Under the pieces are notes generated by a model. That model did not search any database, was not told where the DNA came from, and was given only the letters and a program-made list of their open reading frames with translations. From Candidatus Omnitrophota bacterium (lineage in GTDB: Bacteria > Omnitrophota > Gorgyraeia > Gygaellales > Profunditerraquicolaceae), in the NCBI GenBank assembly GCA_963805065.1, contig CAWDSS010000010.1, positions 536,359-600,358 on the forward strand: DNA of 64,000 bases, in the 5' to 3' direction. Shown here piece by piece: positions 1-64,000 of the stretch (its first letter is position 1; each line of letters begins with the position of its first letter). A program made the translations under genes and the position numbers.

Positions 1-468
1 GTGCCTAAGAATTTCACGCCTGCTAAGTCTGTGTAGAGTAAACGTACGGCATCCAGGCCGCCCTGCTGATTGAAGCTGGCAGCATTCTTGTAGCTATTGA
101 TGATATCCTGTAAGGTCAGGGCTGTATCTAAGGTGGTAGTGATCACAGCGCCGGTGTCGATGTCTACACCCTTGATGGAGGTCTTGCCGATGTTGGCCAC
201 GGCATCAAACACGATCTGCCTTAACACAGCGCTCTTGGTAGAGACGCCGATTTTCTCATCAGTGGTGCCTAAGAATTTCACGCCTGCTAAGTCTGTGTAG
301 AGTAAACGTACGGCATCCAGGCCGCCCTGCTGATTGAAGCTGGCAGCATTCTTGTAGCTATTGATGATATCCTGTAAGGTCAGGGCTGTATCTAAGGTGG
401 TAGTGATCACAGCGCCGGTGTCGATGTCTACACCCTTGATGGAGGTCTTGCCGATGTTGGCCACGGCA
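1..468 (-). repeat. Perfect in-frame tandem repeat, period 264 bp (88 codons), truncated by the window edge
   Basis: Bases 1-204 are identical to 265-468 by direct comparison. The encoded unit contains ...GKTSIKGVDIDTGAVITTTLDTALTLQDIINSYKNAASFNQQGGLDAVRLLYTDLAGVKFLG. Confidence 0.95.
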
Positions 469-12400: not shown

Positions 12401-15400
12401 CAATACCAGTAGCACCATTCACAGTGTCCAACATAGACTGGCCCCATGCAATAGCACCATATTTACCTTCAAGGTTCTGTGCGAATTGATCCAGCGTTTT
12501 ACCTCCAAAGTCTGCAAATATGGACCGGTCAGGATCACCCAACACATGGGCACTCTTAATAATACCTCCAATTTCAGCTGAAACAATCCACATATACCAA
12601 TAGCTCTGGGCAAACTCTTTGCCTCCGTGTAGCCATACATAAGTATAAGGTTTATTCTTTTTAATATCATCCAACTTTACCCTTGAGAATATACGCCACA
12701 CTGGATAAACAATCGCAGAAACAGGCGCTGTTAATGTATAAAATACCGCTCTTACTGCAGGCAACACAAGATATTTTCCAACGGCGAAATTCCTCTCTTT
12801 ATCAACAAATGCCTTAAATGCATCTTTGAAAGATTTACTTGTTGCGGCATTACCTGCGTAATATGCTCTAATAATCATATTTACCAACCCTGGGTCGCGA
12901 ATCGAACGCACCAACCCAAGAGTAATAGCTTCGCCGATTTGTGTTTTAACTTGCTCTAACTTACGCAATTCATCTGCACTCAATCCTTCTTTATTCTGTT
13001 CTGCTTCATTTATGGCAATAATCATATTCCACAAATACCTTGGATCCAAAGATACCGGAAGATTTCCTGGGACCTTCCTAATCTTAATATCTCTTAAGAT
13101 AGTCATTAATCCTAGTATTCTCTGTAACCTAAGGCCGACCACAATAACTACCAGCCTTGCAAGCTCCTGTAATGTATGAGGTAAACCGTATTCCGCGCAT
13201 ATTTTTACCAGAAATGCTGGCAAGGGAGACCAGGTTGCGATATTTTGTGCTGCTTCAACCGGTATTAATCCAAACACTGTAAACACCAGGGGCAAAAATG
13301 CATGAGCTATAACATATCCCCAAAAAGTCATCTGTCCTCTAACCAGGGCAAATGTGAATAAACCCATAAAAACAGGGAAGGCTTCATTCAGCCTTAAATA
13401 AGCGCTCTGGATGTTATAGCTTCTCTTGCCAAACCAACCAGCTGCTTCATATTTTTTATCATAATGTTTAACCAGAGCTATAAACTTTTCATCTTTTCTC
13501 AACTCTTCAAACTTATCTTTGCTATTATCAACGTTGTTCTGCATATCAGAGGTAAAGAAGTTATTGGTTACTTTGGCCAGAAATGGGAATAAGAAACCAA
13601 CGATCACGCCCGTAGCCACATCATGACACATCAGGCCAAAGGTAGCTCCGATTGCACCACCGATAATAATGTTTGCGATAGCATATTTATTAAAGATGTT
13701 TTCTTTCCCGTATATCTTAACGGAAAAAAGCGGGAGAAGTAATCCAACTATTGCTCCCAAGGCTATATTGGTCCAAGTGAGGCCAAATGCAGCTCCCAGC
13801 ACTATACCTATCGGTATATTCACTAATAGAGTGTATTTATTAAGCAGGGCCTTCTTAAAAGATAGCTCAACAACATCCTGCGTCTCTTGTGCCTTTTTCT
13901 CATTCCGCATGTCTCTTCTGGCAAAAAACTCACTTCTTCGAGCATGCCAGGTGTTACTGATCTTGCCGAAGATAAATGTCGGTTTTTCACCTTTTAAGAG
14001 CGCTTTGATATTATTTGTTGCATAAAGCATTGTTATGATTGTGGCGCCGCCCGCAACTAACATATTAAACAATCGTGGAAAATAAGGATGAGCATTAATA
14101 AATGCTTCTGATAATAATTCTTGGGCAAGATTGGGGAGGTAATTTGTGCTAACATAGAGCATACCGACTATTATAGGAAGGATGCTTCCATTGCGGAGAA
14201 ATTCGAATTGTTTCTTGGCGTAATTTCCCGTTAAATATTTTGCATATTCATCCGGTCCGCGTATCCCGCCATTATGGATATCCAAGGCTTGCTTGAAGAA
14301 TTTATAAGAGGCATAGAGAAAAGCTGAAGACAACGCTATAGCAGGTATCGGCATAGCCAGGATGAATCCAACCGCAGTTAAAACTGTAGCCACAGCAAGA
14401 TTAGCCACGCCCAATATAGCCGAGCCCCTTGTTGCCATACGTCCATCTTCGTGGGAAATCGGCGAGCTGGAGTGCGAGGTAAGTGGTGAATTGGAAGATT
14501 CATTTGGCTTGCTAGCTTGTTCAGAATTTTGCCCAGCAACTTTCGCAGGATGCGACTTCAATAATCCGTTATATCTAACTTCTAACGCTTCTGTGCTTTG
14601 TTCTGCCAGGATGGCTTCAACCATTATACGTTTACCATCGCTATCTAAAGCCGAGAGGTCAAAATATGTTGATTCTACAAAGCCTATATTCCTGATAGCA
14701 AAGTAAGTCTTCCTTAATTCATTTTTTACTTCGCGTATAACATCCTCATCCCTTCCTAACTTGTGGGCAACGCCCAATACTACATCAAGATTCACTAATC
14801 CCACAATAAATAACTTTCCGCACAGGTATACCAGATCCGCAAGCATATGAAAAACAGTAGAAACATAGAAGTGAAAAGTTAACATGCTGTTATTGAAATT
14901 GCGAAGTGCTTGTATTTTTCTTGAGGATTTTTCAATTTCCCTGAAGATTGACATATGCGGTTGCGGCTGTCTTAAATCTCTCTTAAATTTCACGGGTGAA
15001 CTGGAGCGTTGGGTAAGCTTCGAAATAATTGAACTGGAAACAGTTTTGTTGCTGGACTTAATTTTATAAGAAACGGCATATTTTTCTGGTTTAAAATTCT
15101 CAGGCATTAGCGCTAAGCTTGCAGATCCAATAACTATATAAAAGATATTGAAAGGTTCGAAAGATTGCAAGGAAATTAATATAATCGCACCGCTAATTCC
15201 ACGGATAACAAAACTTGTTATACCGTGGATAAAGTCATCTGCTTTATGACGGAATGCGTCTTTGGTATCGTAACCAATGTAAAGTAAAACAGTGCCTAAA
15301 CCGCCGAATATTACCGTTACAATTAGATCTAAGTCAATATTCATATTAAATGCGGTCAGGCCAAATAATTTTTGTTCTAATCTTAATAATGTCGGTGTCA

Positions 15401-18400
15401 TGCCAGCTATTAAAAGTAAATTTGAATACACATATTTGTAACCCGGAAAATAATTTAATGATGCATACTTAAACAATGTATTGCGTAATTTCTCCGCGAG
15501 CACAAAAATCAACCCGCCAACAATTATTGGATTTGAAATTTCTCCCATCGGATGCGAAATGAAAGAGATTACGGTAAGTAAAATACCGGTCAATGTGTTC
15601 TTTGTATTAACACCTTCCACCGGTGAGCTGCCTTTTATCAAAGAAACAATCTCTCCATTCTTCTGGACAGGGAATTTCGTAAGTAGCGACTTAAGTGCCG
15701 CAACGTCAAAATGCCTAAAGAGCATAACATCATGCTTAAAGCTTTCATATTCTTTCAAATCTAAAATGTTGCGAGCATTGCGAAGAGTTGATGCTAAGAA
15801 TTTATTCATTGCCAGGACAATGTTTTCGTTGGATAGATCTGCCAGGGCTATATTTAATAGCTTTGTAAATTTCTCTTCAAGTGCGACTCCCACCTGTTGC
15901 TGTTTCCTACCAACAGAAATATACTCTGACGAACCGACGTAAACGTGTATACGATCCTTGATAACAGACAAAATAAGCTGCGCTCGCTTCGCCGCATGGC
16001 TGCTATTTAAGAATCTCGAATTCGGTAAACTCTGCAAAGCAAAACTCCCATTCAAATCTGATAAGAGCCCTTGAGCGATTTCATTGTAATGGCTCTCAGG
16101 CAAAGCTGCTATTTTTCTTGAATAACCTGCGGGACGTATTCCTGAGGCGGGCAACTTAGTAAATCGTGAAACATATCCCATGACATCATAAGCTAAGGCA
16201 TGAATGAGTTGCTTTATTTGAGAAATAGAGGCGGCTTCGAGAATAAGGGGGCTATAAATTTGGTTCAGGATTTCATATCTGTCATACAAGAACTCTCTGT
16301 CAGCGAAACCTTTAAGATTTGCTTTTAGGGTTTCACGAAATTCGCCTATTAAATTCAGCGCCTTCTCCTTAACATCTGATTGCTCCAACATACCGCCACG
16401 CAGAAACTTAACTATAGGCGAAGAACCCTTGTTGTAAAAAGACGCTCTGGAAGCCAGGAATAATGAATATACCTCACTATCCTTTCCCCATACCTTTAAA
16501 ACCTGCTCATCAGCAAAATTCCTTACTTCTTCGTTAGTCAGGCGGCCATAGTTCTGGTTAATTCTCATAATGAGTTTCTGCGGTTTGCTCTTGTGATTAT
16601 CAATGTAGTCCTTTAATGTTTTAAGTAAGAACGTTAACACATCCGAGTTAACCATGTCTTCTAAATCTTTACTAAATGGATGATCCGGAGTCATAGCCTT
16701 AAGGACAACCTCATTCCCCAGCACTCCTGCCCGATTTAATCCTAATTCATGATAGAGAATTAATGTGCTGATATATTCTATATGCTCTTCGCTGAACCAG
16801 CCAACAAATGTCCTAAGGAACTCCTCAGCTATCTTAGCATTCATCATGGCGTGGAGAACCAGCTTGCGGAATTCTTCATCCAGCTGAGGATTGGAAAGCT
16901 TTGCCGGTTCAAGCCAATTGAATTTACGGCCATGGTCGTGGTTAAGAAACGCAATCTCCTTGTAAATGTCTCCCGGAGTAGCTAATCCGTATTTCCGCAA
17001 GAGGTAGTAAGAATCCAGAGTTTGCTCGTGATGATAGCGGTCAGATTTTTGTAAATAAGAACCTATGGGATGAAGCGCTGCGCCATAGCTAAAATCTAGC
17101 ACCTGCTTAACAGCCTCAAATTTCTTACCATCATTCGGCCCATCTCCTACACTCCTCCTTGCTTCCAAGGCTCTTTTAGTTACGCCAAACGGAAGCACAA
17201 CACGAGCCTCTTGAACTTTCTTGTATAATGCCCAAGCTTCATCCAGGGACATAGGGCTTGAACCGATTCTTTGGATATGCTTTCTTGAAGGCCTAATTTC
17301 AAAGATTGCGGCTTCTTGTTTTATTTGGCGTCTGCTGTCAAATATAAACTCTACATTGGTTGCTCTAATATGCTTAAATAGATGCACGGGTAACAAAATC
17401 CTGCCACCTTCTCCAACATCTAAAACCTCGGAAAGACTAAGAGCAATGTATCTTAAGCGGTTATCACTGAGTATTTCTTTAATTGCATTTGTATTGGGAT
17501 TGAGAACCAGATATGGCGCTCTTCCCGGAATAGTAAGCGACCTCGAAACAAGAACCTTTGTTCCAATAAGTTCTTCAAAGTCTTCGGGTAATATTAATTC
17601 TCTATCCCATTTGGCAAGACCGTAACTAAAAATGACTTGGGTTTTTGAAAAGTCAGGCTGTCCAAAGATTGATTTAAATACTTCTATTGGCTGGTAGCCT
17701 TTTAATAATAAAGAATCAATGTTTGCACCTAACCGCGGTAACTTATTTGCGTTGGCTCTCCAAATCTCCTTCCTTGAAAACGCCGGAGAACCAGCTAAGT
17801 TTTCTAATTTTTGCAGTAAATTAATAATTCGGGGTTGATTGGTTGCTTGCATCGGCGAGCTGCCATGAGCGGTAGAAATAATTTCATCTATTCTAATCAA
17901 AACCTTCTCGATTCCAGAAGCAACATCAACGACCGTGAAGCTCATCTTCGCTATAGCGCCGTATATGTTGCGTAACTCTATTCCCTTGCTTGTTCTCATT
18001 AATAAAGCATCTTTGACGTTCACCTTAATTTGCCTGAATATGCATTCAATAGGTTCATCTTGTATATGACGCCTTATTAATTCATGATTTAGATATTCAA
18101 CTATGGACAAAATGTCGTTCAAAGATTGCTCAAAAGGTTCGATAGATTCTTCGGAAACAGCAGTCCCTTGCATACCCCTGACACTACTTTTGAGCTCCTT
18201 AATTATTTGAGTAATTTCTACAGATCCCTGAAGAACTGCTGCTTTTAAGTCTCTAAACGCTTGTTCATAATAACCCACCGGCGAAGAGGAAGTGCGGATG
18301 ACATGGCCGTCTTTTGAGAATAGAATCGGTTTTTGGGTGAAAGGTTTTTCGTAGTAATATCTCAAAAATCTCTCGACTTCAATCCTTGTTTCCCTCCACG

Positions 18401-21400
18401 GACGTCTGCCTTTTTTATTGGGCGTTTCAGACAACTGTTTCAGCCAATCCTCTGGGCCATACGTCTGTAGTGCTTTGTATGGAGGCGTGCGTCCGGAATT
18501 GTACATAGCCACAGCTGCACGTACGTAACGGTAACCATAGAAGAATCTATTAAAGGAAAGAATGCTTATTTGTTCAAAATGGTAGCCTTCCTGGTTTTTA
18601 TTCTCGACAAGGCGGTGCTCACGCGTAAACTTAAGATCGCAATAGAATATCGCTGTGCCAATAGCTATATTATAGTCTGGGCTATCGTAAACCTTTTGGC
18701 GGTTAATCTTTTTAACTTTTTCCGGAGCAATTCCTTCGGCAGCTCCGATAATCTTTCTCAAAACTGGAGCATATTCGTCATTATTGTGTATCGATGCATC
18801 AATCATATCCATGCCCTGTGGAGTTATTTGCATAATGCCAATGGCGCCGGCCCAAGAAATAATGACTCTACGTTTGCCATTTTTACCAAAAATCCAGTGA
18901 TTTATATCTGTCTCTGCTCCAGCGATAGATCTTGTGATACGTGGATTGAAGTGGGCGATAAGAGCATATTTTGCAAACGAATCAAACTCAATGACTAGTT
19001 TTTCAACTTCCTTCTTGATGAGGTTCTCTACAATTTTCCTCACAGGCTCGGTTTTTCTTTGAGGGGTAAACTGAAGAGGTTCAGATGTCGGTTTATCTTC
19101 CTTTATTATTGGTGCAGTTTCAATTTTTGACAACTGGGAGGATTTCCAAGTAATTGGCTTTTCTCTTGTGGGCCGCGGCAATTTGTGTCGAATATCCTGA
19201 TTAATCTTTTTGTCTGACTGCGGCTTACTCTTCTTAACTGGCAACACTGGTTGAGTTTCAACTGGCTTCTGAGGCTTCATTATTTCTGGTAAGCGTTTAT
19301 TATTGACCTCAACAGTAACTGATTCTTTTACTCCTTCTTTCTCTGTTACAAATACTAGAGGCTTATTATGAGCAATAATACCTTTATATTCGAATTGAAG
19401 CGCAAAAACTCTAATCTGTTCTTCAGGATATGTTTGGTCACTGGTCACATATACTTTTTCTATTTTGCCTTTTTCATCTTCAACCTCAACCACATGGCTA
19501 GGGATTCCTATCTCTTCTAGTTTATCAACAATTTTAAAGCCGACTTGTCTATCATATTTAAAGCCGACTTGTCTATCATAAACCTTAATGTTAAATTTAC
19601 CTTCTGGCGAAGTTTGATATGCTGTGTTAAAAGATGGAAGTAGATGCTCCAAATTAATACTAGACGCGTTAATATCAGTAAGAAACACGTTGCCTGCAAA
19701 GACAACAGCTACAATTGTACTAATAGATTTTACCAGCACGCCCTTAAACGTCATTGGTGAAGAAGTACTATCTAATAGCTTTTCTATTTTACCTATATTT
19801 GTATTATTGCTAATTTCTGCTGTATTCTTTACAAAAGCTGCTTTGTCAATCTTCGTATTTATAACTGAAGATGCGGCTGGGCTGGAAGAGACATCTTCTT
19901 TTCTCATATAAGCTCGTAACGCCCAAATGAATCCAAAAGCCGCGACAACACCTAGGGCAATCTTTCCTGCCCCAATTTTGCTAGATTCTTCTACTAATAC
20001 GCCATTCTTGAATTCTAATACTTCGATGTTTTGCAATGTGGCGTCATATGCCCGCGCCTTGGATTCATTATCAACATCCACATACAGCTTAGGATTGCTG
20101 AAAGAGATATCCTTAACACTATGGAATTTACCTTTGAGTGCCGATATCAACTCAAATCTGGATAACCTGTTATTAGTAGAAATTGTATTTACAACTAACT
20201 TCTCAGGCTTAAGGCCATACTTTCTTAATATAGTAATTAAATTATCGACTTTTTGCTCTATCTCTCGAGAGCTATTCCAAGTTTGATCATCATTAAAAGG
20301 AGAGAAGTGACCCACTATTACTTTATTGCTGGAAGTACCATCTATCACAAACACTACACATTTATTGGTCTGAATGGCATTTGTGGTAATATAACTACCT
20401 CTATCAGCGACTGCTAATGTATTCTCAGCAACCGTGGTATATTCATGTTTTGCTTTTACAGAAATAGCCGGATTTAATAAATCGTATACTGTGATAGAAG
20501 CAAACGCCTGCAAGGCTGGGGTAAGCCATATTACCAAGCTTACCGCAGCTATAGCGATAACTTTGGAAAAAGAGGCTCCTCTGGCCTCCTTATGATAAGA
20601 GGAGCCTATTAATCCTGTAGGTAGGGACTTTGCCATAAGCTGATTCAGCGCGTTGCCGGACAATGTCGGCACAGCCACATTCCAATTCAAGCCAAGCCTC
20701 GCCGCTCTGCTGCTTAATAACCCCGTTGATAAGGAAATTAGCTGTCCTGCCGCTACCGTTGACCTTTGCGGAACCAAATACCGTGCCATCACTGTTGTCA
20801 ATAACAAAGTGGATAAACTCCAAATCACTATACTGTTTACACATGGTACACCTCCTATTGATGTTGTCATGAGGGCGGTGATGGGGGTCAGTTCCCGGAG
20901 GTATGATGGGACCATCACCAGCGCCTCATGAGCAACAATAGCCGTAATTGCTACTATTCCTGCCACGGAAGGAGTAGCTAACGGCCGGATTAAATTCAAT
21001 ATATTTTCTGTTAAATGTTGGGTTGCTGTATGTATAGTTGTTGTAATAGGGGTCGCAGGATGGGTCAGTCTCTGGAGGAGAGATCCTGCGAAACCCCTAT
21101 ATACAACAATAGCCGCTACTATGTTCCTGCCACGGAAGGGATAGCTAACGGCTGGATTTCTAATGTTTATTATTAATTTCTTGATTAAGGAAGTACTTAA
21201 GGAAGGTGTTTTATAGACAAAAAGACCACTAGGAGTTTCTTTAGTGGGCGGACTAAGTCCGTTTAAGGTTTTGACAGGATTTCTACCGCTTAACTCAGAT
21301 CTTTCCACAACTTTGCCGGATAATACTGGCGAAGCTGCTAATTGCAGTTTCTCTGTCTCAACCGCACTATTAGAATCTATAATAGTTCTGTTACCAGAAC

Positions 21401-24400
21401 TCTTACTTTGTTCCTTACCTGTATTTACAGGTGAGGTTCTTTCAGCTGGAATGCTTTTAGCTGGAGTTTCGCCTCTGGCATTTTGCTTAATTATGTGGAG
21501 CTTACCTATATTGTAGGGCTCTACATTAATTAGCTTCCAGTTGCTCAGAGCACTGACCCCTATGAATCTAACCTTAGAGGTTGCACTCCAAGAACCTGCC
21601 CTAGCTGCATCTTTTATAGATGCACTTCTAGAACCTGGCGTAGCTCTATAAGCTGAGCTTACACCTTCTGCACTAAATTGTGCAGCTTTGTAACCTTTTG
21701 AACCAATATTTGTACTCGCTATTCTTTCAGATCCACGACCTGCGATCGCGAGAATCGCAGCCGCGGGTCTTATGGGGCCGGCGCGCTGGCGCAACATCCA
21801 AGCAAGAGAGTTAAGATCAGTCAAGGCTCCGCTTAGAGTTGCAAGGGAATTCTTTTGCAGATAAGTTTGTAAGCTAGGGAATTGTGAGACAATCACAATC
21901 AATGCCAATCCTCCCGCAATCCAAGGATTAGCTGTATTACCTATATATAGTAGGGCGAATGGCACAGCCATAGGCATTCCCAACGGCTGCTGCTTAGGCC
22001 CTCTATTCTGCAAAGGAGAGCCATTTGCCTGATCATCAAATGGCGCTTTGAGTTTCGGCATATTCCCTAGATAATCACTCCTGCCTATAATACTCAAAGG
22101 CGCTATAGGCTTGAGTTGCTTAACTACTAATGCCTTAAATTTGATTACGGATGATGCAAGTTTTGTTGCTTTCATAAACGTAAGTGGCAACAATGGACTC
22201 TTTGCTATCTTAGCCGTATTGGCCATTAACATGTCTTTGTTATTATAAAACACGGTCGTAATAAGCGACCCTTGCCTAAATGGAGTTGAACTTGCTGTTA
22301 TTAAAACAACTGCCATCTTAGCGCCTTGCGGAGCAATAATCCTGATTTCTTCTGCCTTGGTTAATGCTGCATTAAGTGTTAAACGCGCTACTAAATCAGG
22401 CGATCTGACTATTATTAAAGTAGGTAGAGTTGCCTTTCCGACGTCAGGAGCAAGTTGTTTTGCTTGTGCTGCTGTAAGGCGTATATTTTCCGCAACCTCA
22501 GGCCCAAGCTTCGTAGGCTTACCTATTATTGCTAGGCGAAATGCCGTATCAGACAAAGGCTGACCAGATCCCTCTACAGCCGCCATTATCGTCCCACCAG
22601 TATCAATCATCAGGTTTAATACCCCTATAGGGCTAGCACAGAGGCTATACTGCTCCAGTAACGACTGTAGCGCCTCGCCTACTGTTGGTATCTCTTCTAT
22701 CGGCGTGCTTCCGACGCGTAAACTTACCCCCGGCCTTACCGGCAACGCTTCAAAAACAGGCGAAGACGTTATTTTAACATCCACGCCTACTTCTGATGTT
22801 TTTTCAATTAGCTTAAACACGACCGCACCGTTAGGCTTAATATCTTTTACTTCAATTTTTGCTCCTTGCTGTTCAGCCAAATCTATTACATGTGTTGTGA
22901 ATGCTCTAATTTTAGCTTCCTGTTTAATGTTGTTAATGAAATCGTGTTTTACATAAATCAACCCCTGAGGTTTCAATACGCGGATAACTTCCTTCATTAC
23001 ATCTTGTTCTTTAGCCCACCTAAAAAGATCAATAACACTAACTTTTGTGACGCTATTATCGGCGAGAGGAATTTTTCTTGCATCAGCCCTCAGCACCGAA
23101 ACATTGGCGGGGATTGCTTCAGCTTGCTTATAAGATTTACTTAAGTTATTCAACTCCTTAGAAATATCAACCATCGGCTTCATGGCGAGCTTATCCGTTA
23201 AATCTGGTATCGTAGGATTATTTACAAACTTTAATAAAGGTACAACTAAATTATTGATATTCTTTTCTGATATATCAAGGTATATGGATTTGATGCCTTT
23301 CAATGATGCAACCGCTATATATGTTCCAGGGCCACCGGCTAAGTCAAGGAACGTATCTTTGTCATTTAGATCAAGCGCCTCCATTACTGCAATTGCAGGA
23401 ACTGTACGCTGTAACCTAAGTTGTGTCATGGGTGATGCAGAAATATTGATATCTTCTATATCCCCAAGATAATCTTTGCGTGGCGACGCAGACTGCGCCA
23501 ATGGCGTGGGTTTTATTGCTGTCTTCGCCATCGGCGAACTTGCAGCATTGGTTTCAATGCCGCTTTGTTTAACCAAATTCTGCAATGTAGCAACCGGAGC
23601 AATGTGCATAATTTCATCAATGCCGGTTTGCTTGTAAATAGCTTCAAATTTCTGGCCTAATTCAGGAGTAGAAAGTATCTTATCTGCCGCTTTAACCATC
23701 TTTTCATCTACTGCATAATAACTCTTGGCAACTCTATAAGCAGCAAAGAACGGAGTCATATGCCCAAAGAGTTCTATGGCTACTCCGAAATCAGTCTTCT
23801 CAATCTTGGAAGCTGACTTTACTAAATTATCCCATTCCACCTTAACCGGCGTGCTATCTTTGATTGCCACGCCGATATCTGCTATTGCCCCTGCTGCCAG
23901 TGTTGTGAATTTCTCCACTGCTATACTGGTACTATCGAAATCAGGGCTTTCTTTAATACGCCCTACCAGTGCTTCTAATGCCCTTGCCTTTATTATGGGA
24001 GCCTTATCGCTATCTCTAATTGCCCTAACATATTTGGCAATACTATCGTAATCAGTTCTTAAATAATCTACTAATACTTTTACAGACTCAACATCTTGTA
24101 ATTCTTTCACAAACTGCTCTAATGCTACTTTGTTATCTTTATACGCATATCTTAATCTGGCCTCGGCAGGATCATGTGTAAAGGCTATAAGGTTTTCTGC
24201 TGTAGGAATCAGTTTATCTTCTCTGATTAAGGTAGCGCCTACGCCATTACCATATTCTACTGAGTTAGCTAACATACTTGTCCTTGCGCCTTCAATAATG
24301 CCCAGGGTATTTAGTAATGTAGTTTCGAAATCATCTTTAGAAACTATCCTTGCTATCTGTTTATCTATAGTTGCCTGCTTTATTTCTTCAAATAGCACTT

Positions 24401-27400: not shown

Positions 27401-30400
27401 GTAGACGAATTAAGCTTGGGTTAATTGTAGCTGAAATCTTTCTTAAAGAAATTCCTTCATTAAAATTAACTGGATTGACCAACGCATGCTTTAAAATATT
27501 ATCTGCTCCCTTATCTCTATAAAGATGAATAAATCTAGAAACGATGGCCGTAGGGCTTATAGCATCGGCCATGGTGAAATATTTCATTAATAAGGTATCA
27601 TTGGTTTGCGCAGCAAAAGGAATATTGTTTACTAGCTGCGTATTTGCCCTCTCAAGCAATAACTTTTGGTCTCTAAATTTAGAAAGCCGCCCATAGGTAA
27701 CAGACGGGTTGATACTTAAGGATACAATCTGTTTTATATCTTGCTGGTCAACAGGAGCTAAGTTATTAATACCGGGTAAGGAGGTATCAATATACTGAAT
27801 TAAATTAGCTGCAGAAACCTGCACATTGAAATTAGTTGAGATATTCTGCCATAAAGCATTATTATGCTGTAAAGACTGCAGAGAATTATATAGAGTATTG
27901 GCAAAGGCATTGTTATTAATTTGAGGCCCGACAATACCTGCTACGATTTTAACGAGATTGGCGCTAGTTAAGGTATGCGTGCTAAAACCATCTATTGTCT
28001 TACGTATTGCATCTTTATCAGCCTCTGACACTGCGATTTGTTTGCCTTCTAATGTCCTGATTAATTGCTCTGCGCCTTCCCTTACCTGCATACTCTGTTT
28101 CATTAGGTCCTCTGAAGAATTGGAAGATGTTCTAATTGTAGGAAGTAAGAAATCTTCGGCTAACCTCTTTGCAGAAGGAAGGATATCCTTGACTGTCTGG
28201 ATATCTCTTATACCTATAATTTTTCCAGAGGATGCGCCAAACATCTGTTCTTCGAAGTTTTTATCTTTGGTGAGGTCCCATTCAGCGCTCCTGAATGCTA
28301 ATTCTATCTGTCCACGCTTAGCATAATCCTCTCGGAATGGAGACTCTTCTGCTAATAACCTAAGCTTGGAAGAAGTAGGCTCATAAGTGCGGTCCTTTGT
28401 CTCAAATGCCCTAGAATTGCCTTCCAAGACATTTACTAATGTCTTTACCTGTTTACCCAGGCCTTCCAATCTTTGTTTTACTATATCTTTAGGACGTGCA
28501 ATATCTTCGAAGGCAATGGTAGTATAGAGTTCTGAATTTCTGTCCAGAATAACCTCTTGATAAACCTTTTGGATAAAGTTGCGCTGCTTAGCATTCCAAG
28601 ATTTACCCATAAACTCTTCAAATGTACGTGTCAAGAATACCTCTTGCATGCTTCTTGTAAATATATCCAATGCTGCTTGGCTTCTATCTCTATATTCCTG
28701 TATATGAAAAGCTAGCTTAATGGCTTCTGGGTCAGAAAGATTCTTGTTATCTAGCGCATCAATATAGTTCTCAAGCTCAACACGCTCTCTTGATCCATAA
28801 GCAAGTTTACCTGCCTCTTTTTGCCAGCGTTCTTTTAAATATTCCTTTACTGGGGCTATATCCTTGAAATAAGCATCTGCTTGTCCGCGAGAGTAATAAA
28901 AATCTACTTTTGCGCCACGATCACTGTTACGGTTGATACGTGCTATTGCCTGCAAAGCTCTGGACATGTTGGTGATAGAAGGATTTTCCGCATAGAACAA
29001 ATTCACATCCTTGGCAACGTTAACTCCCTCTTCGCCGATTTCTGTGGTAATAATGATTTTACCTTTGCCGCTTAGCTGCTTTGCCTCACGGACTAGGTCT
29101 CCTTTATCAAAAGAGTCTGAACTGCCGTCAAATGACCGCAGATGTTCTCCACTTAACGAATCTAAATCTATGCCGCGATCTAATAATTCGTTCCTTAAAT
29201 AACCTTTGAACTCTCCCAGATTTTCTGCTCCCACAATTACATAAGCGGATTTACCTGATTTGCCTCTTTCCTTGCCAGCAATATTAGTTGCAATATTTTC
29301 GGCAACTGTCTTAGCCATTTCTTTCAGCGGCTCTGCTTTATCGTTGAGCTTTATCTCGCTGACGATTTCATTACCTACCATATAGAATAATTCATTATTT
29401 CTTATAACTAATCTTGCTTTTTCTCCGGCCAGGCTAAATTCCTTGCCATTCATAAAGGAAATGATCTCTGAAGGTGTTCCGGTTAATGCTGAGTTTCTTC
29501 CGCCAATCTTAGTAAAAAGCTGTAATACAGAAGAGGAAATAATTGTATCTCCTCCAGCAAAAGACTCGTTCCATTTAATCTTGTCTACAGGGATATTCTT
29601 TTCCTCTGCTTGTTTTAAGGCACTGGCTACCATCAAGGCTTTATTGTGTAAAACCATATCTGCCTGTAAACCATCCATCTTGCTAGACACCTGCACTCTG
29701 CCATCGGTAATAGCAACAGAAATTCCCTTCTTAATGATTGCGGATGCAATACTGGTAATATCTGCATCGGTAATGGTTTTGTCATGATTTAACTGAGTTT
29801 TAAGATAATCTAAGGCTGATTGGGTAAGAGCAACGCTATCGCCTTCTATAGCATAACCTCTTGTGGTGATGTCTTCTCTGGTCTTGGAAGGCTGTTCGCC
29901 TTGTTTAGTATCAACTTCTGCCAGCTCTAATTTAGTAATTGCCTTGCTATTTATGGCATCCTTTATCTTGTCATAAGCCAACTTGTATTTATTGTAGTAG
30001 TTGGAAAGCTTGGTGTGATCGCGTCCGACAATTGCTTCCAGGCTCTTAATAGCATTCTGTCCTTCATCAAAATCAACCAGGTGGTTGTTTTCTCTTAAAT
30101 ATGTGAATAACTCATCCGCGCTCTTCTTTGCCATATAATCAGAGACCATTCTGCGGTTAAACAGATGCGGGAATTTCTCGTAGCTTGCTACATTAATTGT
30201 ATTGGCATCTTTTAAGCTGGATAAAATCAATGATGTGGGAGTGAGAGGATTAGAAACAGCATTGTCTATGTTTTTGATCTTAAGTCCGAATAATTCTGTC
30301 CAGAAAGTTGCCTGGTCCATCACAGACTTAACCAAGGTTGTATTCTTGGTAAGATATAAAGAAGCTGTGTCTTTACGCGCCATGCTCTCTGATATCAAAG

Positions 30401-33400
30401 CAAGAGATATTGCTAAAGTTTTCCCCTGATTCATGGCAGCTTCGATATTCTCGCCCTTCATGATATCAAGCAATTTATCCGCTTTTTGCACCTGATTTAA
30501 AGACAGGAAATCAGTGTCAAGCTTACATGTCTCTACATCGGTAAAGATATCTTTTCTTATGCAGGCACGGGCGAACCATTCCATATCCTTCTTAATAATA
30601 TCTTCGGCGTTAGCACCTTTTTCTTGCTTAACTTTCTCTATTGCTTCCGCGAATGCCTTAGAGTATCCTTTATCAAATCCAGTAATTTTAGTTACGTCCT
30701 CACCTTTTTCATTAGTTAAGATATTGTAAGTAAACTCAATATCGATTTTGTCTACACCTTTAGAAACTTTTATTTTTATAACATCCGCACCATCTCGCAT
30801 GCTATTTTCTATACCCTCAATTACTACGCTCTTCGTTCTTAACATATCCCTGATCGGGCTACCAGAGGTCGATTGATCCACTATCTTTTCTGCAATCTTA
30901 GCGCTAATCAAACTGGTTATATCTGCATAATTAAATGGTTTGTCTAATTGAGCCTTCTCTATTAATTCTTGTTTAATCCCATCTACCAATTGCTGAGCAA
31001 GAATAGCTTTATCTGCTTCTTTTACAAATTTGATTTCTTTTAAATCGTCTTTTGTATAGCTAACTTGTATGTCTTCTGACCTACTGCCGTCTTCCTTTAT
31101 AAATGATACCCCTAACACTCCTTTGATTTCTTTTGTCAGCGGATCCATATTTTCTTTCAACACCCTTACTTCAATAGAATCCATGCGATTGTTAATTATG
31201 TCTTTGACTTCCTGGAATTTGGCGGGATTTGTCTCTGCTAATAAGGCTATATTACCTTTATTTGCATTTATGCTTTCGACGCCTCTCGTTACAAGGAACT
31301 CTATGGCTTCCAGCTTATTAGTATTCTCATCCTTAGCTGCTTCAATAAATAGTCTATTGAGAGACTTCTGATACCCTAACCAATCCTTGCTACTGCCGGT
31401 TTCAATGAATTTCGCTTCCGCTACCTCAAAATTTTCTATAGGAGATTTTTTCTTGTTTAACCAAGCATCTATCCAAGTAGTTTTCTGCATACCAAATAAT
31501 TCGCTGGGCATTACTGGCATCTTCGGCAGCTCTTTACCAGCATTTATTGCCTCTAGCTGCTGTTCCTTTATCCCCTTCAATTGACTATGCTTTTTCTCAA
31601 CTTCAACCTGCTGCTCTAAACGAAGCAATTCCTTCTCTCTTATGCTCTCAGGTTGCGAAAGAGGATTTTTCAAGTAATCAACCATTGCATTAGCATATTT
31701 TTTCTCTGAGTCAAATTTAGAATTCTTGATTTTCTCATTAAACTTCGCTATTTGTAGCAACCTATCAACAACCCCTGAGAGGGTATAAGGATTATCTGCT
31801 TTGATTTCTTTGCTACGATTGTCAACCAGCTTTACCTCTTTCAAGCGACCAAATATTGTTTTTGCTACATCAAAAATGTTATTTACATCGCTATCCTTTA
31901 CCTCTAAACCTTTTTCTCTTAAGATGGATTTGATTTGATCTATCTTTGCGCCTTCTTCTGCATTACTAAACACAATCGCTTCTATCGCCTTTCGTAAATC
32001 TGCTCTCGCATCCGTCAAATTCTTTTCTGCACGGCTGTCTGTAATGATATTGGTTATGGCACTGTCAAGATCGTGTGATAGTTCTCTGATTTTTTCTCCG
32101 GATTCGGAAGAAAGTTCGTTAATATCAACTCTCTTTGCGTTAATCGAACCTATAATATATTCTGCATTGTCAACGGAGACTGTTATGTCTTTTAAACCCC
32201 TTAAAGACCAAGGTAATTTAATACTGGTGTTTACCAATGCCTCTTGCCAAGTCACCTTGCCATCTCTTATGTCCTTGAGTTTCTCCGCCAGATTATCGGC
32301 GAGTTTAATCTTCTCTGTACCATAGTTACTCAATATTCCAGCCACAAATGAGGCGCGCTCTTCATCTCTATGTTTTAACAAGCGCTCTACGCCTTCTGTA
32401 ATTTCAAATTCTACTTTATCTATCTTTCCGTTTCTTGTCTCTTCCAGGGTTATCTTTCCGTTAGACATTACCTTGGTATGATTCATAGGAAGCTTTGTAA
32501 TCAGTACATTATCCAAGGCCTGGCTTAATGCCGATGTTTTATATTTCCCTTCTTTATTGATATCGAAGGCGAAATCTTTCCCTAAATCTATCTCTTGTGC
32601 GTTTACTGCTTCTGCTTCCTTGACTTTATCCTGTATAAACTTTAACTGGTTAAGGCTAAGATGAGAAATGCGCGTCATATCAAGGATAGCTTCTGCTTCT
32701 GATAACATGGTAACCGGTAGGGTTCTGGTTCTATAGGAAACAGTGATATTCTCTATCTTATCGGAGAGTTCGGTGGTAAAGTTGGCTAGGTTACTATAAA
32801 AATCTTCATTTCTTAAGAGGTTGTCTTCTGCGGCTTTGAATTTCTCCCAGGTAGCAAAACCATAGTATTTAGCTAATTTCTCCTGGGAAATTTTTGTATT
32901 ACCAGAGAACATGAAATCTTCTTTGAAGCTTAAATCAACAGGAGGAGAACGCTGTTGATCGGCGAGGTCTATATGGGCCTTGTAATCACTGGCAAGGTCC
33001 TTAACCAAATTCTTTATGTAATCCTCTCCTAACCTGCTCTTCATATCCCTGATTAAGAGATCGGGATTATCCTGATACATCTTTTTTAAAACATCTGGTT
33101 TCGTTTGGTAATGCTGTTGAAGTGTTCCTTCCCAGCCAGTATCGTTATGTTCTGCTGCTTGTTTATTTATGAAATCTTCCTTTTCTGCAAGCCTGGTTAT
33201 GGAATTTTTCAATACCATCTCTTCTATTGCTTGATCAAGGTGCGCTTGTGTGACCTTCGGGTTCTGGGGATTTTCTACTTTTGCAATTTCCGTTGCCTTA
33301 TCTATTACAACTTTGGAGATATTTTTTAAGCCCTGTTTATAAAAAACTTCCGCTGTTTCATCTAAAGATTTTCCAAACATATCTTGGGCTAAATTATTTT

Positions 33401-36400
33401 TGTTGATGTCTGAATCTGACAAGCCCTTCGCATTTAATTCCTCTTTTAGCTTAGAAGATAAGGCTTCTCTGTAATTTTCTAACCTTATAACTCCTAGCCC
33501 TAATCTTTGCGCTTCTGCATGTATACCAGCAATAAAATCTTGCTGACGATCGGCGTTAACCTTTATTTCCATAGTTTCCAAGTTTTCGGTTGTAGGTGTC
33601 ATGCTTAATCTATATGCGTCTTTATTAACAGCCGGAAGAATATCCTCTACATGACTTACGACGGATTTTATTAAATCCTCGCGTTTGAACTCACCGTTAG
33701 GACCAACATAAGCTCCGGCTTTTGTCTGTTCACGTAACATTTCCACTATGGGGTTTACTACGTAGGCGTCGATATCTTTTCCTAGTTCCTCAGGATTGTT
33801 GGCATAATGATTTTCAAGAATCCATATCCTGTCCTCTATGGCAGCATCCTTCATAGGAGAGGAGCTGTATTGCCTTCCCGCTACTATTGAAGCCACCAAT
33901 TCTTTTGCGCCTAGTCCGGAACTCTTAATTACATCGCCTATGCTGTTTTTGATATAGGTATTAATGGGAGTCAGGATTTCTGCTTCTAAAGCTCCTGGAT
34001 CATTAGAACGAATAGTATTAGTAACTAAGGTTCCTAAATCCTGCTTGTTTTCTCTTAGTCGAGAGATTATTTGTAGCGCTGTATCCTCCCTATTAATCTT
34101 CACATCTTCTCTGCCAATATCCTTGCCTTCTGCAACATAAGCTCTTAGGGTTCCCAGAGTATTTTCGGAGATTCTTCCGCCCATAGGCATACCTAAGAAA
34201 CCTATGAAAGAATAAAAACTAATTGCTTCTTTGGAAAAACCTTCATTTTGACCCAAATAGCCTTTAAGAATCTTATCATTTACCAATCCAAGGGCACCTT
34301 CAACGCTGCTTACAATTGCCGGCATGGTGATTACTGTTGATTCAACCCAATTCCCAAGACTCTTCATGGCGCCTTCTGAACCTTGGCGTAAAATAGCCTT
34401 TTCTATTGCATAAGCAGGCGCCCCTTCAGAACTTCTATTTATTGCGGCTATTCCTTTTTTCAATTGAATACCCAACCAGCGAGAAGGAGAAGTCAATAAT
34501 CCGAACTGCAAACCAGGCTCTAATGATTGCGCCTGAGCTAATCCAAATGTTGCGGGCATCCACCTACCAGAAAGAGAAGATTGCAAAACAGAGAACATAT
34601 TAGTAATGACAAGGTTCTTCCAGGTAAAATCCAATTTATTATTCACATCAAAAGGATTATCTAACTTTAAAGGCTCACCTGTAATCTTATCTGCTATCGC
34701 CCTGGCTGCTACTCCTCCTATATTAAATGCCGGGCCAACCGCAAGCCAGTTTGCCACACCTGCAGCATTAGTCTTATAAAGCCACTGCGCTCCGGAGAAA
34801 CGCTCATCTGAACCTAAACCAAATACTTTTACAGGCTCTCCTTTGCCGATTAACTCGATATTCTTAGTAAAACTCTTGGATAAATTTCCTAAATACCAGA
34901 AACTTAAGCCTCCCTTAAGTGCGCCCTTAATGTTATTAGCCAAAAAACTATTAACATCCGGCAAGCTCATGTAGTTAACTGCGTAGCTTACATTTTCTAT
35001 GCCTGCTCCCACTAATGTACCATATGCTATTTTTTTCCATCCCTGCGTCCAGCCATTCCATTCACTAATTCTTGATACGGCGCCGTTCCATTGAGTTATC
35101 CCTTGTGCTTCATTTTCTGTAAGTCTCCAACCATTGGATTTCTTGCTACCAAAAGGATAAACCATGGCTGCACCCCATAAAAGACCTGTAAAATAATTAT
35201 TGGGGTCAGATAATGAATTCTTCATGGAATCAATAAAGCCGCTATTCCCTTGCGAATAATTCCAAATCCCCTGACCAATAGGATTTAATATTGCCCCGGT
35301 TGCCGGATAGGTAAATACCCGGGTTGGTATCCTATCGGCAAAAGGCAGTTTAGCCAAAGTAGGTCCCGCTTCGGAAAGCTTGGCTTCAGGAGAATATAAC
35401 TTGGCAAAAGCTGATGTTCTTTCTTCTGCGTTTGTTGTAGTCATCTGTTTGGCTAAGCTAGGCGTCAACTCTAATACACCACCTATGGCGGCGCCAAAAG
35501 CTGAACCCTTTAAGAACCCGCCGCCAAAATCATACGCCATTGAAATAGGATTAGTTGGCTGCCCCAAAGCAGTTCTTATGCCTGTATTAGCTACAGCCTC
35601 GGTTCTTCCCCAGAAAATCCCAGTTGGAATAACATAGCGGGAAATAAAGCTGCTTTCTTTAGCCATTGCTAAACTCTCCCCCTTGTTTCCCAAAATTCCC
35701 AATACGCCAACCGTAGCAAGGTTTTCAAACGTATAGAAATCTCTTACGCCTTGTAATGCGCCTGCCCAAAAACCTTTTCCGCTGCCACCATCGCGCCAAC
35801 CGTTTATCCCGCCGCCTAATCCAGCAAATGCAGTGTAATAAGACAATTCTCTCAAGGCAGCGCCCACAGCATTCTTGCTTAAAACTAATTTTGCTCCCTG
35901 ATAAGCCATATCCCCGAGAGCTGCTGAACCTGCTTCGCCCAATAAAGGTAAACGGCCAGCAAGGCTAGTACTATATTCTTTAATTGTTAAAGCTGCGCGC
36001 TCAGAAAATGAAGCTCCCGCTGTTTCCTTAACCACTCCTTCTGTAGCTGCTGCAAAAGGAGCTGTTACTAATCTTGCACCTATGCCTAAGGTTAGAACAT
36101 CAAAACCTCCTTGCAAGGAAAGCAAGAAACGTTCAGTTGAGTTCTGAGCCCTATATAAACCGTATACATCGCTAGCTCTCCCACTTAATACTTCATAACC
36201 ACCTATGCCGATACGTGAAACTATAGCCATAGGATCAATAGGGTTTAATTTACTTGCCTCTCCTAAAGTAATCCTTAATTTTGCAAAATTATCATTGCCT
36301 ACGTTTTCGTATTTATAGCGACTATCTATTGCATTAGTCACTGCCTGCGCTCTTGATATAAGTGGGTCAACGACGAATTTAGTTGCAGGATAAACTAGTA

Positions 36401-43650: not shown

Positions 43651-43750
43651 CGATATTCGGCAACCCGGCTATCTTTTCTTGCTTGACTTGGAATCTCCAA
43701 GACCCGTGGCTTTGCGCCCCCTGATCACTCAGGGTTTACCTTTTCGATCC
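43651..43750 (-). promoter_or_regulatory. GEMM-I (c-di-GMP-I riboswitch)-like aptamer candidate in the giant-gene leader
   Basis: Minus-strand RNA GGAUCGAAAAGGUAAACCCUGAGUGAUCAGGGGGCGCAAAGCCACGGGUCUUGGAGAUUCCAAGUCAAGCAAGAAAAGAUAGCCGGGUUGCCGAAUAUCG. It has GGUAAAC, then a 6-bp hairpin with a GNRA loop (CCCUGA-GUGA-UCAGGG), then GCGCAAAGCC, a second hairpin, and AGCCGGGUUGCCGAAU. From memory, the Vc2/GEMM-I blocks are GGCAAAC ... GACGCAAAGCC ... AGCGGGGUUACCGAUGG. Confidence 0.5.
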
Positions 43751-56346: not shown

Positions 56347-56829
56347 ATGCCTAGAGGTGCACGATTATTTGTAAATAATGCCTATTATCATATTGTCAAT
56401 CGCGGAAATCAAAAAGAGAAAATATTCATAGAACCCCCCGATTTTGAAAAATACCTACAGCTGTTAAAACACTACAAACGTAAATACGCTTTCGAAATCT
56501 TTGGCTATTGCCTCATGCCTAATCATGTTCACATAGTATTAGGGGCTAAAGCGGCGCATAAGTTGCCAAAGTTTATGCAAAGCTTGACTCAAACATACAC
56601 TATGTGGTTCAATGGCAAATATAATAAAGTTGGCCATCTTTGGCAGGGAAGATTCAAATGCATGATTATTCAAAGAGATGAATATTTTCTGGAAAGTATA
56701 TATTATGTTGAGGCTAATCCTGTAAGAGCCGGTATGGTTCATTCTCCTAAAGATTATGTTTGGAGTAGCTATAAAGACAGGATCTTCGGTAATAGAAACG
56801 GTTTGTTAGATCTGCCTGATTCAACCTAA
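56347..56829 (+). CDS. REP-associated tyrosine (Y1, HUH) transposase, RayT/IS200-like
   Basis: 160 aa. HUH motif in GYCLMPNHVHIVL. Tyr region SIYYVEANPVRAGMVHSPKDYVWSSY. AGGAGGTG SD. GGGACACCC hairpins lie immediately downstream. Confidence 0.8.
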   Translation: MPRGARLFVNNAYYHIVNRGNQKEKIFIEPPDFEKYLQLLKHYKRKYAFEIFGYCLMPNHVHIVLGAKAAHKLPKFMQSLTQTYTMWFNGKYNKVGHLWQGRFKCMIIQRDEYFLESIYYVEANPVRAGMVHSPKDYVWSSYKDRIFGNRNGLLDLPDST

Positions 56830-63688: not shown

Positions 63689-63707
63689 AAAAGTCGGTAC
63701 TATGTAA

Positions 63708-63782
63708 TAGCCCCAACGAGATTTGAACTCGTGTACTCAGCTTGAGAAGCTGATGTCCTAGACCGGGCTAGACGATGGGGCC
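63708..63782 (-). tRNA. tRNA-Glu (anticodon CUC)
   Basis: Minus strand GGCCCCAUCGUCUAGCCCGGUCUAGGACAUCAGCUUCUCAAGCUGAGUACACGAGUUCAAAUCUCGUUGGGGCUA. It has a 7-bp acceptor stem (G1-U72 wobble), a GUCU/GGAC D-stem, an anticodon stem UCAGC/GCUGA with loop UUCUCAA, and a T-arm ACGAG-UUCAAAU-CUCGU. No CCA is encoded. Confidence 0.85.
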
Positions 63783-64000
63783 AAAGTTTCATTAAAATAA
63801 TAGCATAATTCTAAGGACTATCAATAATTATGTTGACCCGTCTTTGCAACTATTATATACTGATTTTATTTACAACCACTTAATGACTAATGCCGAAATC
63901 CGAATGCCTAATAAATGCCTAATTCTTAAATGTTTAAATGTCTAATTAAGCATTAGAAATTTAGACATTAAAAATTAATTAGGAATTAGAATTTAGAAAT

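Follow-up and report, generated by a model that had tools for sequence, protein, structure and literature searches.

Omnitrophota encode giant proteins of 10,000 to 147,000 amino acids (aa), and whether these remain single chains or are cut into pieces is an open question. According to West-Roberts et al. (2023, 10.1101/2023.11.21.568195), who set the threshold for a giant gene at >90 kb, the cleavage points of the giants are unknown, and a survey of 2026 treated internal signal-peptide calls as chunking artefacts (10.64898/2026.06.07.730766); a junction or cleavage motif is described in neither paper. Here, we analyse a giant gene that is seen over 43.5 kb of a 64,000-nt stretch of DNA from a Candidatus Omnitrophota bacterium (assembly GCA_963805065.1, contig CAWDSS010000010.1, positions 536,359 to 600,358), hereafter called the window. 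The encoded protein contains eleven copies of the motif Ser-Ser-Pro-(Met/Val/Ile), abbreviated SSP[MVI], which most probably mark boundaries between protein-sized modules and are tentatively read as the junction signature of a polyprotein-like chain.

The gene occupies a stop-free frame on the minus strand (window 3-43487, 14,495 codons) and encodes a protein of at least 14,495 aa, the C-terminus of which lies beyond the window start. Residues are numbered from the first codon of this frame, so that residue i corresponds to window position 43487-3(i-1) downwards. An N-terminal transmembrane (TM) helix at aa 36-54 is followed by a peptidase C39 domain, whose catalytic residues Cys141 and His222 do not vary among 11 aligned relatives, and further TM or hydrophobic clusters are found at aa 7508-7935 and aa 9386-10127. 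Besides C39, Pfam matched a S-adenosylmethionine (SAM) methyltransferase at aa ~6711-6848 and, weakly, Helicase_C at aa 4780-4854 (E 6e-5, just over the cut-off), and no further domains in the 14,495 aa. On these sequence features, namely the N-terminal TM helix, the C39 peptidase and an upstream locus resembling Tad pili and type II secretion systems (T2SS), the protein is an archaeovorin-type Omnitrophota giant. Like the described members (10.1101/2023.11.21.568195; 10.64898/2026.06.07.730766), it combines a TM or signal segment and C39 at the N-terminus with a methyltransferase, numerous TM helices and, as far as the weak Helicase_C match goes, a helicase-like region; its sequence diverges very fast, and its gene lies downstream of a conserved T2SS/Tad-like locus that includes RcpC, a secretin, an ATPase, class III signal peptide genes and a Rotamase_2 peptidyl-prolyl isomerase (PPIase). 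In contrast to them, the part of the protein within the window (14,495 aa) showed no SecA_DEAD match in Pfam and neither glycosyltransferase nor NUDIX domains; glycoside hydrolase domains were not found in it either. Sequence searches of the PDB with the whole protein returned a single weak methyltransferase match, aa 4301-5400 had no homologues in a word-indexed database of 5.8 billion proteins, and all homologues of the N-terminus are annotated as Omnitrophota or Omnitrophica.

Viral polyproteins carry the protease that cuts them within their own chain, as is the case for picornavirus 3C, potyvirus NIa and the papain-like proteases of nidoviruses, and flavivirus polyproteins additionally contain internal signal peptides. 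The window protein resembles them in that one open reading frame (ORF) encodes unrelated units, a short motif lies at the junctions, a protease is present in the chain and some units have internal signal sequences; in contrast to them, it is encoded by a bacterial chromosomal gene, is ~10x longer and has the motif in its middle third only. MARTX toxins are cut by an inositol-hexakisphosphate-activated cysteine protease domain (CPD) at sites in unstructured linkers between effector modules, mainly with Leu at P1. They too are giant bacterial proteins whose modules are parted by short sites and which contain a cysteine protease in the same chain, but they use CPD rather than C39 and Leu-P1 sites rather than the motif described here, and no sequence homology to them was found. 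For both comparisons, cleavage of the window protein is inferred.

A recurrent Ser-Ser-Pro motif

A preliminary description of the window listed ten occurrences of SSP[MVI] and one looser copy, ASPM, near position 23430. All ten were recovered in frame and at the same coordinates, the ASPM copy was likewise found, and an eleventh site (T-SSPV at aa 6908) was added (Table 1). The suspicion that the motif exceeds chance, which had been based on a rough estimate, was borne out by compositional and shuffled null models. Eleven in-frame copies compare with 0.35 expected from composition; 2000 global shuffles of the protein gave at most 3, and shuffles within blocks of 50, 100 and 300 aa averaged 0.37-0.44 copies and never exceeded 4 (Poisson p ~2e-13). 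In an unbiased ranking by over-representation, SSP is the top tripeptide, and SSPM, SSSP, SSPV and GSSP occupy ranks 1, 2, 4 and 6 among tetrapeptides. The remaining five reading frames contain 0-2 matches each and the neighbouring proteins (5,750 aa) none. For calibration, the top-ranked tripeptides of related giants (45 fragments) do not go beyond p 1e-4 to 1e-7. Moreover, ten of the eleven sites fall within aa 6650-9674, a stretch that makes up 21% of the length (p 2e-6). A chance or compositional artefact could produce a lone site such as that at aa 3209, given an expectation of 0.35 sites per protein; for the ten clustered sites, it is refuted by the enrichment, the frame specificity and the clustering, and we give this explanation practically no credence.

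The spacing of 200-500 aa that had been proposed for the motif holds within aa 7909-9674, where the gaps are 142-492 aa, but not elsewhere, since other gaps amount to ~1,000 and ~3,400 aa. Four motif/variant pairs are only 34-43 aa apart (aa 6650/6684, 6908/6951, 7351/7385 and 7868/7909; window 19752-23540, minus strand), and each of them flanks a P-, S-, T- and N-rich spacer of low complexity. Gaps of 30-45 aa account for 4 of 15 (p 0.013). Paired copies around low-complexity spacers recall the spacer peptides between the processed units of polyproteins.

The context of the sites is conserved on one side. As noted in the preliminary description, a small residue precedes the motif: position -1 is G, A, S or T at all eleven sites (p 6e-7), and eight of them have K, R or H at -2 or -3 (p 0.001). 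The residue after Pro is Met five times, Val four times and Ile twice; Met is over-used relative to Val and Ile (p 0.005), and Leu is absent from all eleven sites despite being the commonest aliphatic residue (p 0.0035). The extended consensus is therefore [K/R/H]-x(0-1)-[G/A/S/T]-S-S-P-[M/V/I]. Apart from Ser at -9 and -10, no residue class is enriched at positions -4 to -10, and nothing is conserved across the eleven sites downstream of the motif. Looser copies of the form [G/A/T]-S-P-[M/V/I/L] begin at aa 4209, 6684, 6951, 7156, 7351 and 7385. The Pro-to-Ser variant SSS[MVI], which is known from relatives, is not enriched in the window protein.

Sites at the edges of protein-sized units

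The motif very probably acts as a module-boundary marker, which agrees in part with one of the options put forward in the preliminary description. The clearest case is the unit of 276 aa between SSPM-8743 and SSPI-9022, which corresponds to one complete stand-alone protein. Among 1.84 billion representatives, a full HMMER scan with aa 8380-9579 matched only six, all of them stand-alone proteins of 268-430 aa that align to aa ~8774-9024 and give HD and DUF4202 matches. Met1 of one of these homologues (P0002) aligns with the Met of SSPM-8743, and the stand-alone C-termini lie at or near SSPI-9022. An AlphaFold2 (AF2) model built from the homologue alignment (pLDDT 79.8, pTM 0.80) places the start of the first confident helix at the Pro of SSPM-8743 and the end of the last one 4 residues short of SSPI-9022, where a tail of low pLDDT follows. 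Foldseek comparisons of this model with the PDB gave weak E-values, with HD-superfamily hydrolases as the highest-probability matches. The HD-like unit had no matches in the genome and metagenome contigs scanned, and aa 8350-9750 had no homologues in the word-indexed database of 5.8 billion proteins.

A second bracketed unit is the class I SAM methyltransferase between ASPM-6684 and SSPV-6908, in which motif I lies ~25 residues past the Met of ASPM, as in small stand-alone enzymes. Behind sites 7909, 9287 and 9674, the chain continues with an n-region and a hydrophobic helix. In a single-sequence AF2 model of aa 8380-9579, whose pLDDT of 35 is too poor for domain parsing, the six sites covered are all in coil or at a helix N-terminus. 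Taken together, the bracketed units, the signal-peptide-like or TM segments behind sites and the coil or helix-start positions support a role as boundary, and we consider it very probable that copies of the motif stand at the N-terminal edges of autonomous units, each the size of a protein, within a polyprotein-like chain; each unit would start right after the Pro. Three findings would have spoken against any meaning of the motif, namely no enrichment, no conserved context and a location inside folded domains; all three were looked for, and none was observed.

In the preliminary description, the boundary option referred to an ancient repeated module. Such a repeat was rejected: all-against-all BLASTP of 300-aa chunks revealed no similarity between inter-site units, and as the units are mutually unrelated and come from unrelated families, the ancient-repeat reading fails. 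The only internal repeat of the protein lies far from the sites, at the end of the part within the window, at aa ~13950-14490 (~80-aa offset, up to 41% identity, E 2e-30), where no tandem repeat was found at the DNA level.

The same boundaries could be passive structural punctuation, that is, uncleaved inter-domain hinges in which Ser serves as helix N-cap and Pro as first helix residue, while the units fold separately in an intact chain. The helix that begins exactly at the Pro in the confident HD-like model and the positions of the six sites in the low-confidence model fit such hinges, as do a mild enrichment of G, S, T, P, N and Q in the 15 residues upstream of the sites (0.39 vs. 0.31, p 0.027) and the conserved parvulin PPIase gene within the locus. 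However, natural linkers are normally sequence-variable, whereas a strict consensus of 5-7 residues that excludes Leu and favours Met is recognition-site-like, and ordinary Pro-rich linkers are found at other boundaries in relatives. A passive hinge is a serious but rather unlikely explanation.

Table 1. Positions of the motif sites, the modules of the giant protein and the features of the surrounding locus (window coordinates unless a relative is named)
Feature	Residues (aa)	Position	Strand	Remark
Giant ORF		3..43478	minus	At least 14,492 aa counted from the first ATG at 43478; archaeovorin-type Omnitrophota giant membrane protein by its sequence features
Peptidase C39 domain	~130-270	42678..43100	minus	PF03412, E 4e-8, above gathering score; right behind the N-terminal TM helix
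Gly-rich membrane-like domain	~2750-3090	34218-35240	minus	No Pfam match
SSPM (QYS-SSPM)	3209-3212	33852..33863	minus	Outlier, distant from the cluster
SSPM (NAA-SSPM)	6650-6653	23529..23540	minus	Opens a 30-aa low-complexity spacer ahead of the methyltransferase module
ASPM, looser variant	6684-6687	23427..23438	minus	Met ~25 aa ahead of methyltransferase SAM-binding motif I
Class I SAM methyltransferase module	6687-6907 (221 aa)	22767..23429	minus	Methyltransf_11 E 4e-10, UbiE-type matches; bracketed by ASPM-6684 and SSPV-6908
SSPV (KIT-SSPV)	6908-6911	22755..22766	minus	Eleventh site; closes the methyltransferase module
Span with five looser variants		19875..22637	minus
ASPI, looser variant	6951	22626-22637	minus
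GSPL, looser variant	7156	22011-22022	minus
TSPV, looser variant	7351	21426-21437	minus
ASPV, looser variant	7385	21324-21335	minus
GSSY	7628-7631	20595..20606	minus	Probable decayed or variant junction; L089 counterpart N-SSPI; followed by signal-peptide-like ASFSKVIAIAAVSLVIWLTPALQAFA
Module shared with L089	7628-7829	20001-20606 (L089: 20582-21187)	minus	Apparent cleavable signal peptide
SSPA, looser variant	7868	19875-19886	minus
SSPM (DST-SSPM)	7909-7912	19752..19763	minus	Followed by MTFKG and a hydrophobic helix (TM or signal-anchor-like)
SSPV (RTS-SSPV)	8401-8404	18276..18287	minus	Helix begins at Pro in the low-confidence AF2 model
SSPM (AHG-SSPM)	8543-8546	17850..17861	minus	Inter-helix coil in the low-confidence AF2 model
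SSPM (RIG-SSPM)	8743-8746	17250..17261	minus	N-terminal edge of the HD-like module
HD/DUF4202-like module	8746-9021 (276 aa)	16425..17252	minus	Bracketed by SSPM-8743 and SSPI-9022
SSPI (NKG-SSPI)	9022-9025	16413..16424	minus	C-terminal edge of the HD-like module
SSPV (IKG-SSPV)	9287-9290	15618..15629	minus	Hydrophobic helices next
SSPV (QRS-SSPV)	9496-9499	14991..15002	minus
SSPI (SHS-SSPI)	9674-9677	14457..14468	minus	n-region (R..R) and TM helix next
Internal protein-level repeat	~13950-14490	~24-1643	minus
c-di-GMP-I-GGC riboswitch aptamer		43655-43749	minus	RF03167, 63.6 bits, E 1e-12
IS110-family transposase gene		55124-56185	minus
IS200/Y1 transposase gene		56347-56829	plus
ParA/MinD-like TadZ-type + T2SSE/TadA ATPase fusion		57241-59403	minus
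Secretin + C-terminal TonB_C fusion		59413-61017	minus
Parvulin-type PPIase		61980-62951	minus	SurA-like N-terminal domain
tRNA-Glu(CTC)		63707-63783	minus	Upstream of the cluster
RF03167 in relatives		L007 9731-9828; L020 8123-8208; L027 9731-9828; L029 9678-9784; L039 9737-9836; L047 9667-9783; L050 9713-9812
RF01051 in a relative		L012 9657-9784

Similar junctions in related giants

An alignment-based scan of genome contigs yielded 158 relatives, 80 of which were retrieved; most of these are labelled Omnitrophota. Alignment between the giants is confined to roughly the first 770 aa (36-39% identity) and to a Gly-rich domain at aa ~2750-3090. The middles of the relatives were mostly out of reach, and homologue searches with the middle of the window protein (aa 4301-5400, aa 8350-9750 and the HD-like unit) gave no orthologues. 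No alternative punctuation motif was found in the N-terminal 3-4 thousand residues of ~80 relatives. The Gly-rich, membrane-like domain is, besides the N-terminus, the only region conserved across many Omnitrophota giants, and it shows the pattern W-x-x-V-S-P-A-F-x-x-G-G ... S-G-x-W-M-x-P ... W-V-D-S-S-V-x-x-M-P.

A metagenome scan anchored on this domain returned four fragments of 4,600-7,060 aa (three of them of ~7,000 aa) and a shorter fifth. Similar junctions, few in number and picked by eye, exist in three other giants (L088, L089 and L090), where they stand ahead of N-terminus-like sequences. In L089, KGSSSV is followed by a REC domain of 132 aa (Pfam E 5e-18), then by NSSPI and then by the signal-peptide-like segment GVKSFKKAVGILLIAGVLVFRSFPAFA/G (the stroke marks the apparent cleavage point). 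The module behind this segment is homologous to the window protein (residues 6868-7062 vs. aa 7639-7829, 31% identity, E 4e-26). In L088, AASSPM precedes the canonical signal peptide MAAIKTLFIIPLLLLASAIPGLSA/Q; two further [A/S]-SSP copies occur within 140 residues, and SSP is found 6 times vs. 1.4 expected. In L090, KSSSSI is followed by a signal peptide. The order of the modules varies between giants, as the methyltransferase is located ahead of the sites in L088 and behind them in the window protein.

The module that the window protein shares with L089, a giant from Hainich, belongs to no known family and carries an apparent cleavable signal peptide (…PALQAFA/S). In addition, the N-terminal, C39-containing part (809-1396 aa) forms a separate ORF in three relatives (L001 10001-24191, L002 2275-15146 and L003 5309-17738), and the next giant ORF begins 18-110 nt after it. 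This part is fused in the window and in most of the 80 relatives, and the three exceptions reflect either a real split or fusion or assembly errors.

Codon bias within the motif

All codon families are used for the first Ser of the motif, so that the motif is selected as protein. The second Ser is encoded by TCG at 6 of 11 sites and by TCR at 9 of 11, compared to a background of 5.9% and 22.8%, respectively (p 6e-5 for TCR); the share of TCR also exceeds that in other Ser-Pro pairs (9/41, Fisher p 5e-4). The last codon is ATG at five sites and GTG at three, which makes 8 of 11 vs. 18% expected (p 1e-4), and GTG represents only 17% of the Val codons. Each of the remaining last codons, ATA, ATT and GTT, would become ATG or GTG by a single change in the third position. 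The codon consensus of the motif is TCR-CCN-RTG. In L088, TCG-CCG is present at all three sites, one of which, AGT-TCG-CCG-ATG, is identical to the window site at aa 6650. The TCR/TCG bias is partly explained by a general preference of the giants for TCG before Pro, as 14-31% of the Ser-Pro pairs of related giants use it.

Several candidates at the nucleic acid level were rejected. Internal initiation driven by Shine-Dalgarno sequences was ruled out, as no such sequence precedes any of the eleven sites; several annotated genes of the window carry AGGAG or GGAGG ahead of their starts. A recombination site or extended DNA motif was ruled out because conservation does not reach past the 9-12 nt of the motif. 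There was no signal of mRNA structure around the sites, and a rare-codon cluster was dismissed since the second Ser codon alone is rare. The codon bias may fit fossil start codons, shared junction ancestry or a ribosomal event; the present analysis does not explain it.

If the bias reflects fossil start codons, the motif could be a gene-capture scar: the units would once have been separate genes, the M/V/I position would be a former start codon, and the motif would have little present function. The preponderance of RTG at this position, with the other three codons one change away, is what such a history would leave behind, and the alignment of the Met1 of a stand-alone homologue with the motif Met, the N-terminal-type signal peptides behind some sites and the variable module order are in line with it, as is the separate N-terminal ORF of L001-L003, which indicates that splitting and fusion do occur. 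A scar does not, however, account for Ser-Ser-Pro, for the small residue at -1 and the basic one at -2 or -3, or for their retention amid flanks that cannot be aligned, and DNA similarity ends with the motif. Gene capture would also be compatible with a functional junction rather than exclusive of one. Overall, a gene-capture scar is distinctly unlikely.

A ribosomal event would mean that, on reaching Ser(TCR)-Pro(CCN)-RTG, the ribosome pauses, releases the chain or restarts, and that a single stop-less ORF thereby gives rise to discrete proteins. SecM and 2A, which are stalling and skipping peptides, act at the bond between a small residue and Pro; 2A 'StopGo' and SecM-type arrest peptides need a conserved nascent peptide of ~15-20 residues, and 2A acts on eukaryotic ribosomes. 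The window motif shares the small-residue-Pro bond with them, and the identity of the P-site tRNA could matter, which would fit the codon bias; in contrast to them, it constrains only ~3 upstream positions. The two independent synonymous-codon biases and the uniform TCG-CCG of L088 favour a translation-level signal, but the sites lack the AGGAG that normal window genes have, show no mRNA structure signal and contain one rare codon instead of a cluster, and the general TCG preference of the giants accounts for part of the bias. Furthermore, we know of no bacterial precedent. A signal of this kind is very improbable, and the same low degree of belief applies to the more specific proposal that the junctions are translational discontinuities, where either release of the chain or skipping of the Ser-Pro bond would be followed by renewed synthesis from the start-like codon next to it.

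A proposed junction signature and candidate processing site

We tentatively favour the reading that the extended motif is the junction signature of a polyprotein-like giant and possibly a processing site. According to this reading, the middle third would be a chain of complete, unrelated units, i.e., the methyltransferase, the HD-like hydrolase, signal-peptide or TM units and several orphan units, and the motif would be the recognition site at which the chain is cut. The giant's own N-terminal C39-type cysteine peptidase, or another enzyme, would do the cutting and thereby release or individualise the units, as the junction motifs of viral polyproteins and MARTX do. The protein has a protease domain in the same ORF and a short motif shared between unrelated autonomous units. 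A processing site is favoured because of the strict short signature between unrelated units, the embedded cysteine peptidase and the exclusion of Leu. That the motif is an actual proteolytic site is conceivable from these sequence features and is put forward with still more reserve. Among the roles offered in the preliminary description, the sequence does not decide between processing, linker and modification, and our preference for processing is a matter of inference. The published proteomic data on V. archaeovorus are so sparse that they do not even give coverage.

The C39 peptidases of bacteriocin ABC transporters and PCAT cut substrates that have Gly at P2 and Gly, Ala or Ser at P1 after an amphipathic leader with hydrophobic residues at -4, -7, -12 and -15. 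The window protein carries this protease family at its N-terminus, with the conserved Cys and His, and has small residues near the putative scissile region; it differs from these systems in that Gly-Ser is found at 4 of 11 sites only and a leader-like periodicity is not seen, with Ser at -9 and -10 as the only enrichment at positions -4 to -10.

Several observations weigh against a processing junction. The Gly-Gly (GG/GA/GS) specificity of C39 is not matched, as the residue at -1 is S, T or A wherever it is not one of the four Gly. A bias in synonymous codons is not expected of a purely post-translational signal. No copy of the motif occurs in the initial 3,208 aa or in the final ~4,800 aa within the window, and site 3209 has no counterpart in L014, the closest alignable relative, where homology passes straight through. 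At the boundary where L089 has SSPI, the window protein has GSSY ahead of ASFSKVIAIAAVSLVIWLTPALQAFA/S; the methyltransferase module of L088 has no flanking motif and is followed by a Pro-rich linker, and the junctions of L088, L089 and L090 are the few mentioned above. Finally, ~80 relatives show no enrichment of the motif over their N-terminal 3-4 thousand residues (14 vs. 8.8 expected). As the window protein itself has no site before aa 3209, this last result is no test of the middle region.

Gene neighbourhood and riboswitch

Upstream of the giant gene and on the same strand lies a Tad/T2SS-like locus that encodes a parvulin PPIase, RcpC, a secretin-TonB_C protein, a TadZ-TadA fusion and DUF192, along with Flp/class III signal peptide genes, TadE/G-like genes and two TadB/C genes. 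The same synteny is found in the relatives L001, L004 and L005, and the same locus, down to the Rotamase_2 PPIase, was described for archaeovorin-type giants of Omnitrophota (10.1101/2023.11.21.568195). Two of the pilus-machinery proteins of the window are fusions (Table 1). The Tad-like operon is interrupted by an IS110-family and an IS200/Y1 transposase gene, which separate the ATPase/DUF192 genes from the pilin genes; in L004 and L005, too, transposase genes are found just upstream of the giant genes. A tRNA-Glu(CTC) gene is located upstream of the cluster.

The parvulin-type PPIase gene heads the Tad/giant cluster, and conservation of the PPIase beside giant genes has been reported (10.1101/2023.11.21.568195). 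This gene could be taken to indicate that the motif is a modification or binding site, where Ser next to Pro is phosphorylated or O-glycosylated or where the locus-encoded PPIase docks. Ser-Pro with an upstream basic residue indeed resembles a kinase-type consensus. However, the window, as far as it covers the protein and the locus, revealed neither a kinase nor a glycosyltransferase, and a modification site would leave the coincidence with the N-termini of homologues and the start-codon-like bias unexplained, which makes it an improbable explanation. Any link between the PPIase and the repeated Ser-Pro junctions is purely speculative.

The leader of the giant gene, between TadC and the ATG, contains a c-di-GMP-I-GGC riboswitch aptamer (Rfam RF03167). 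In 8 of 13 tested relatives, an aptamer lies just upstream of the giant gene, namely RF03167 in seven and c-di-GMP-I (RF01051) in one. The presence of riboswitches in giant-gene leaders suggests that expression of the giant gene appears to be controlled by a cyclic dinucleotide. Riboswitches are mentioned in neither of the two papers on Omnitrophota giant genes (10.1101/2023.11.21.568195; 10.64898/2026.06.07.730766).

Implications for Omnitrophota giants

The motif provides the first concrete and testable candidates for junction or cut points in the giants of Omnitrophota. If the tentatively favoured processing role is true, it would be the first proposed cleavage code for these giants. The motif can be used to search proteomic data, to split giants into units for structure prediction and to design mutations in short constructs. 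If the codon bias holds across many giants, it would indicate a ribosomal mechanism of general interest; should translational discontinuity be true, a stop-less ORF of >43 kb would yield a dozen discrete proteins with normal N-termini, some with signal peptides, and would represent a bacterial counterpart of 2A/StopGo or of stop-less termination-reinitiation. The internal signal-peptide calls that are now discarded as artefacts may be real, and the 'enzymatic middle' of the giants may consist of whole captured proteins, N-termini and signal peptides included.

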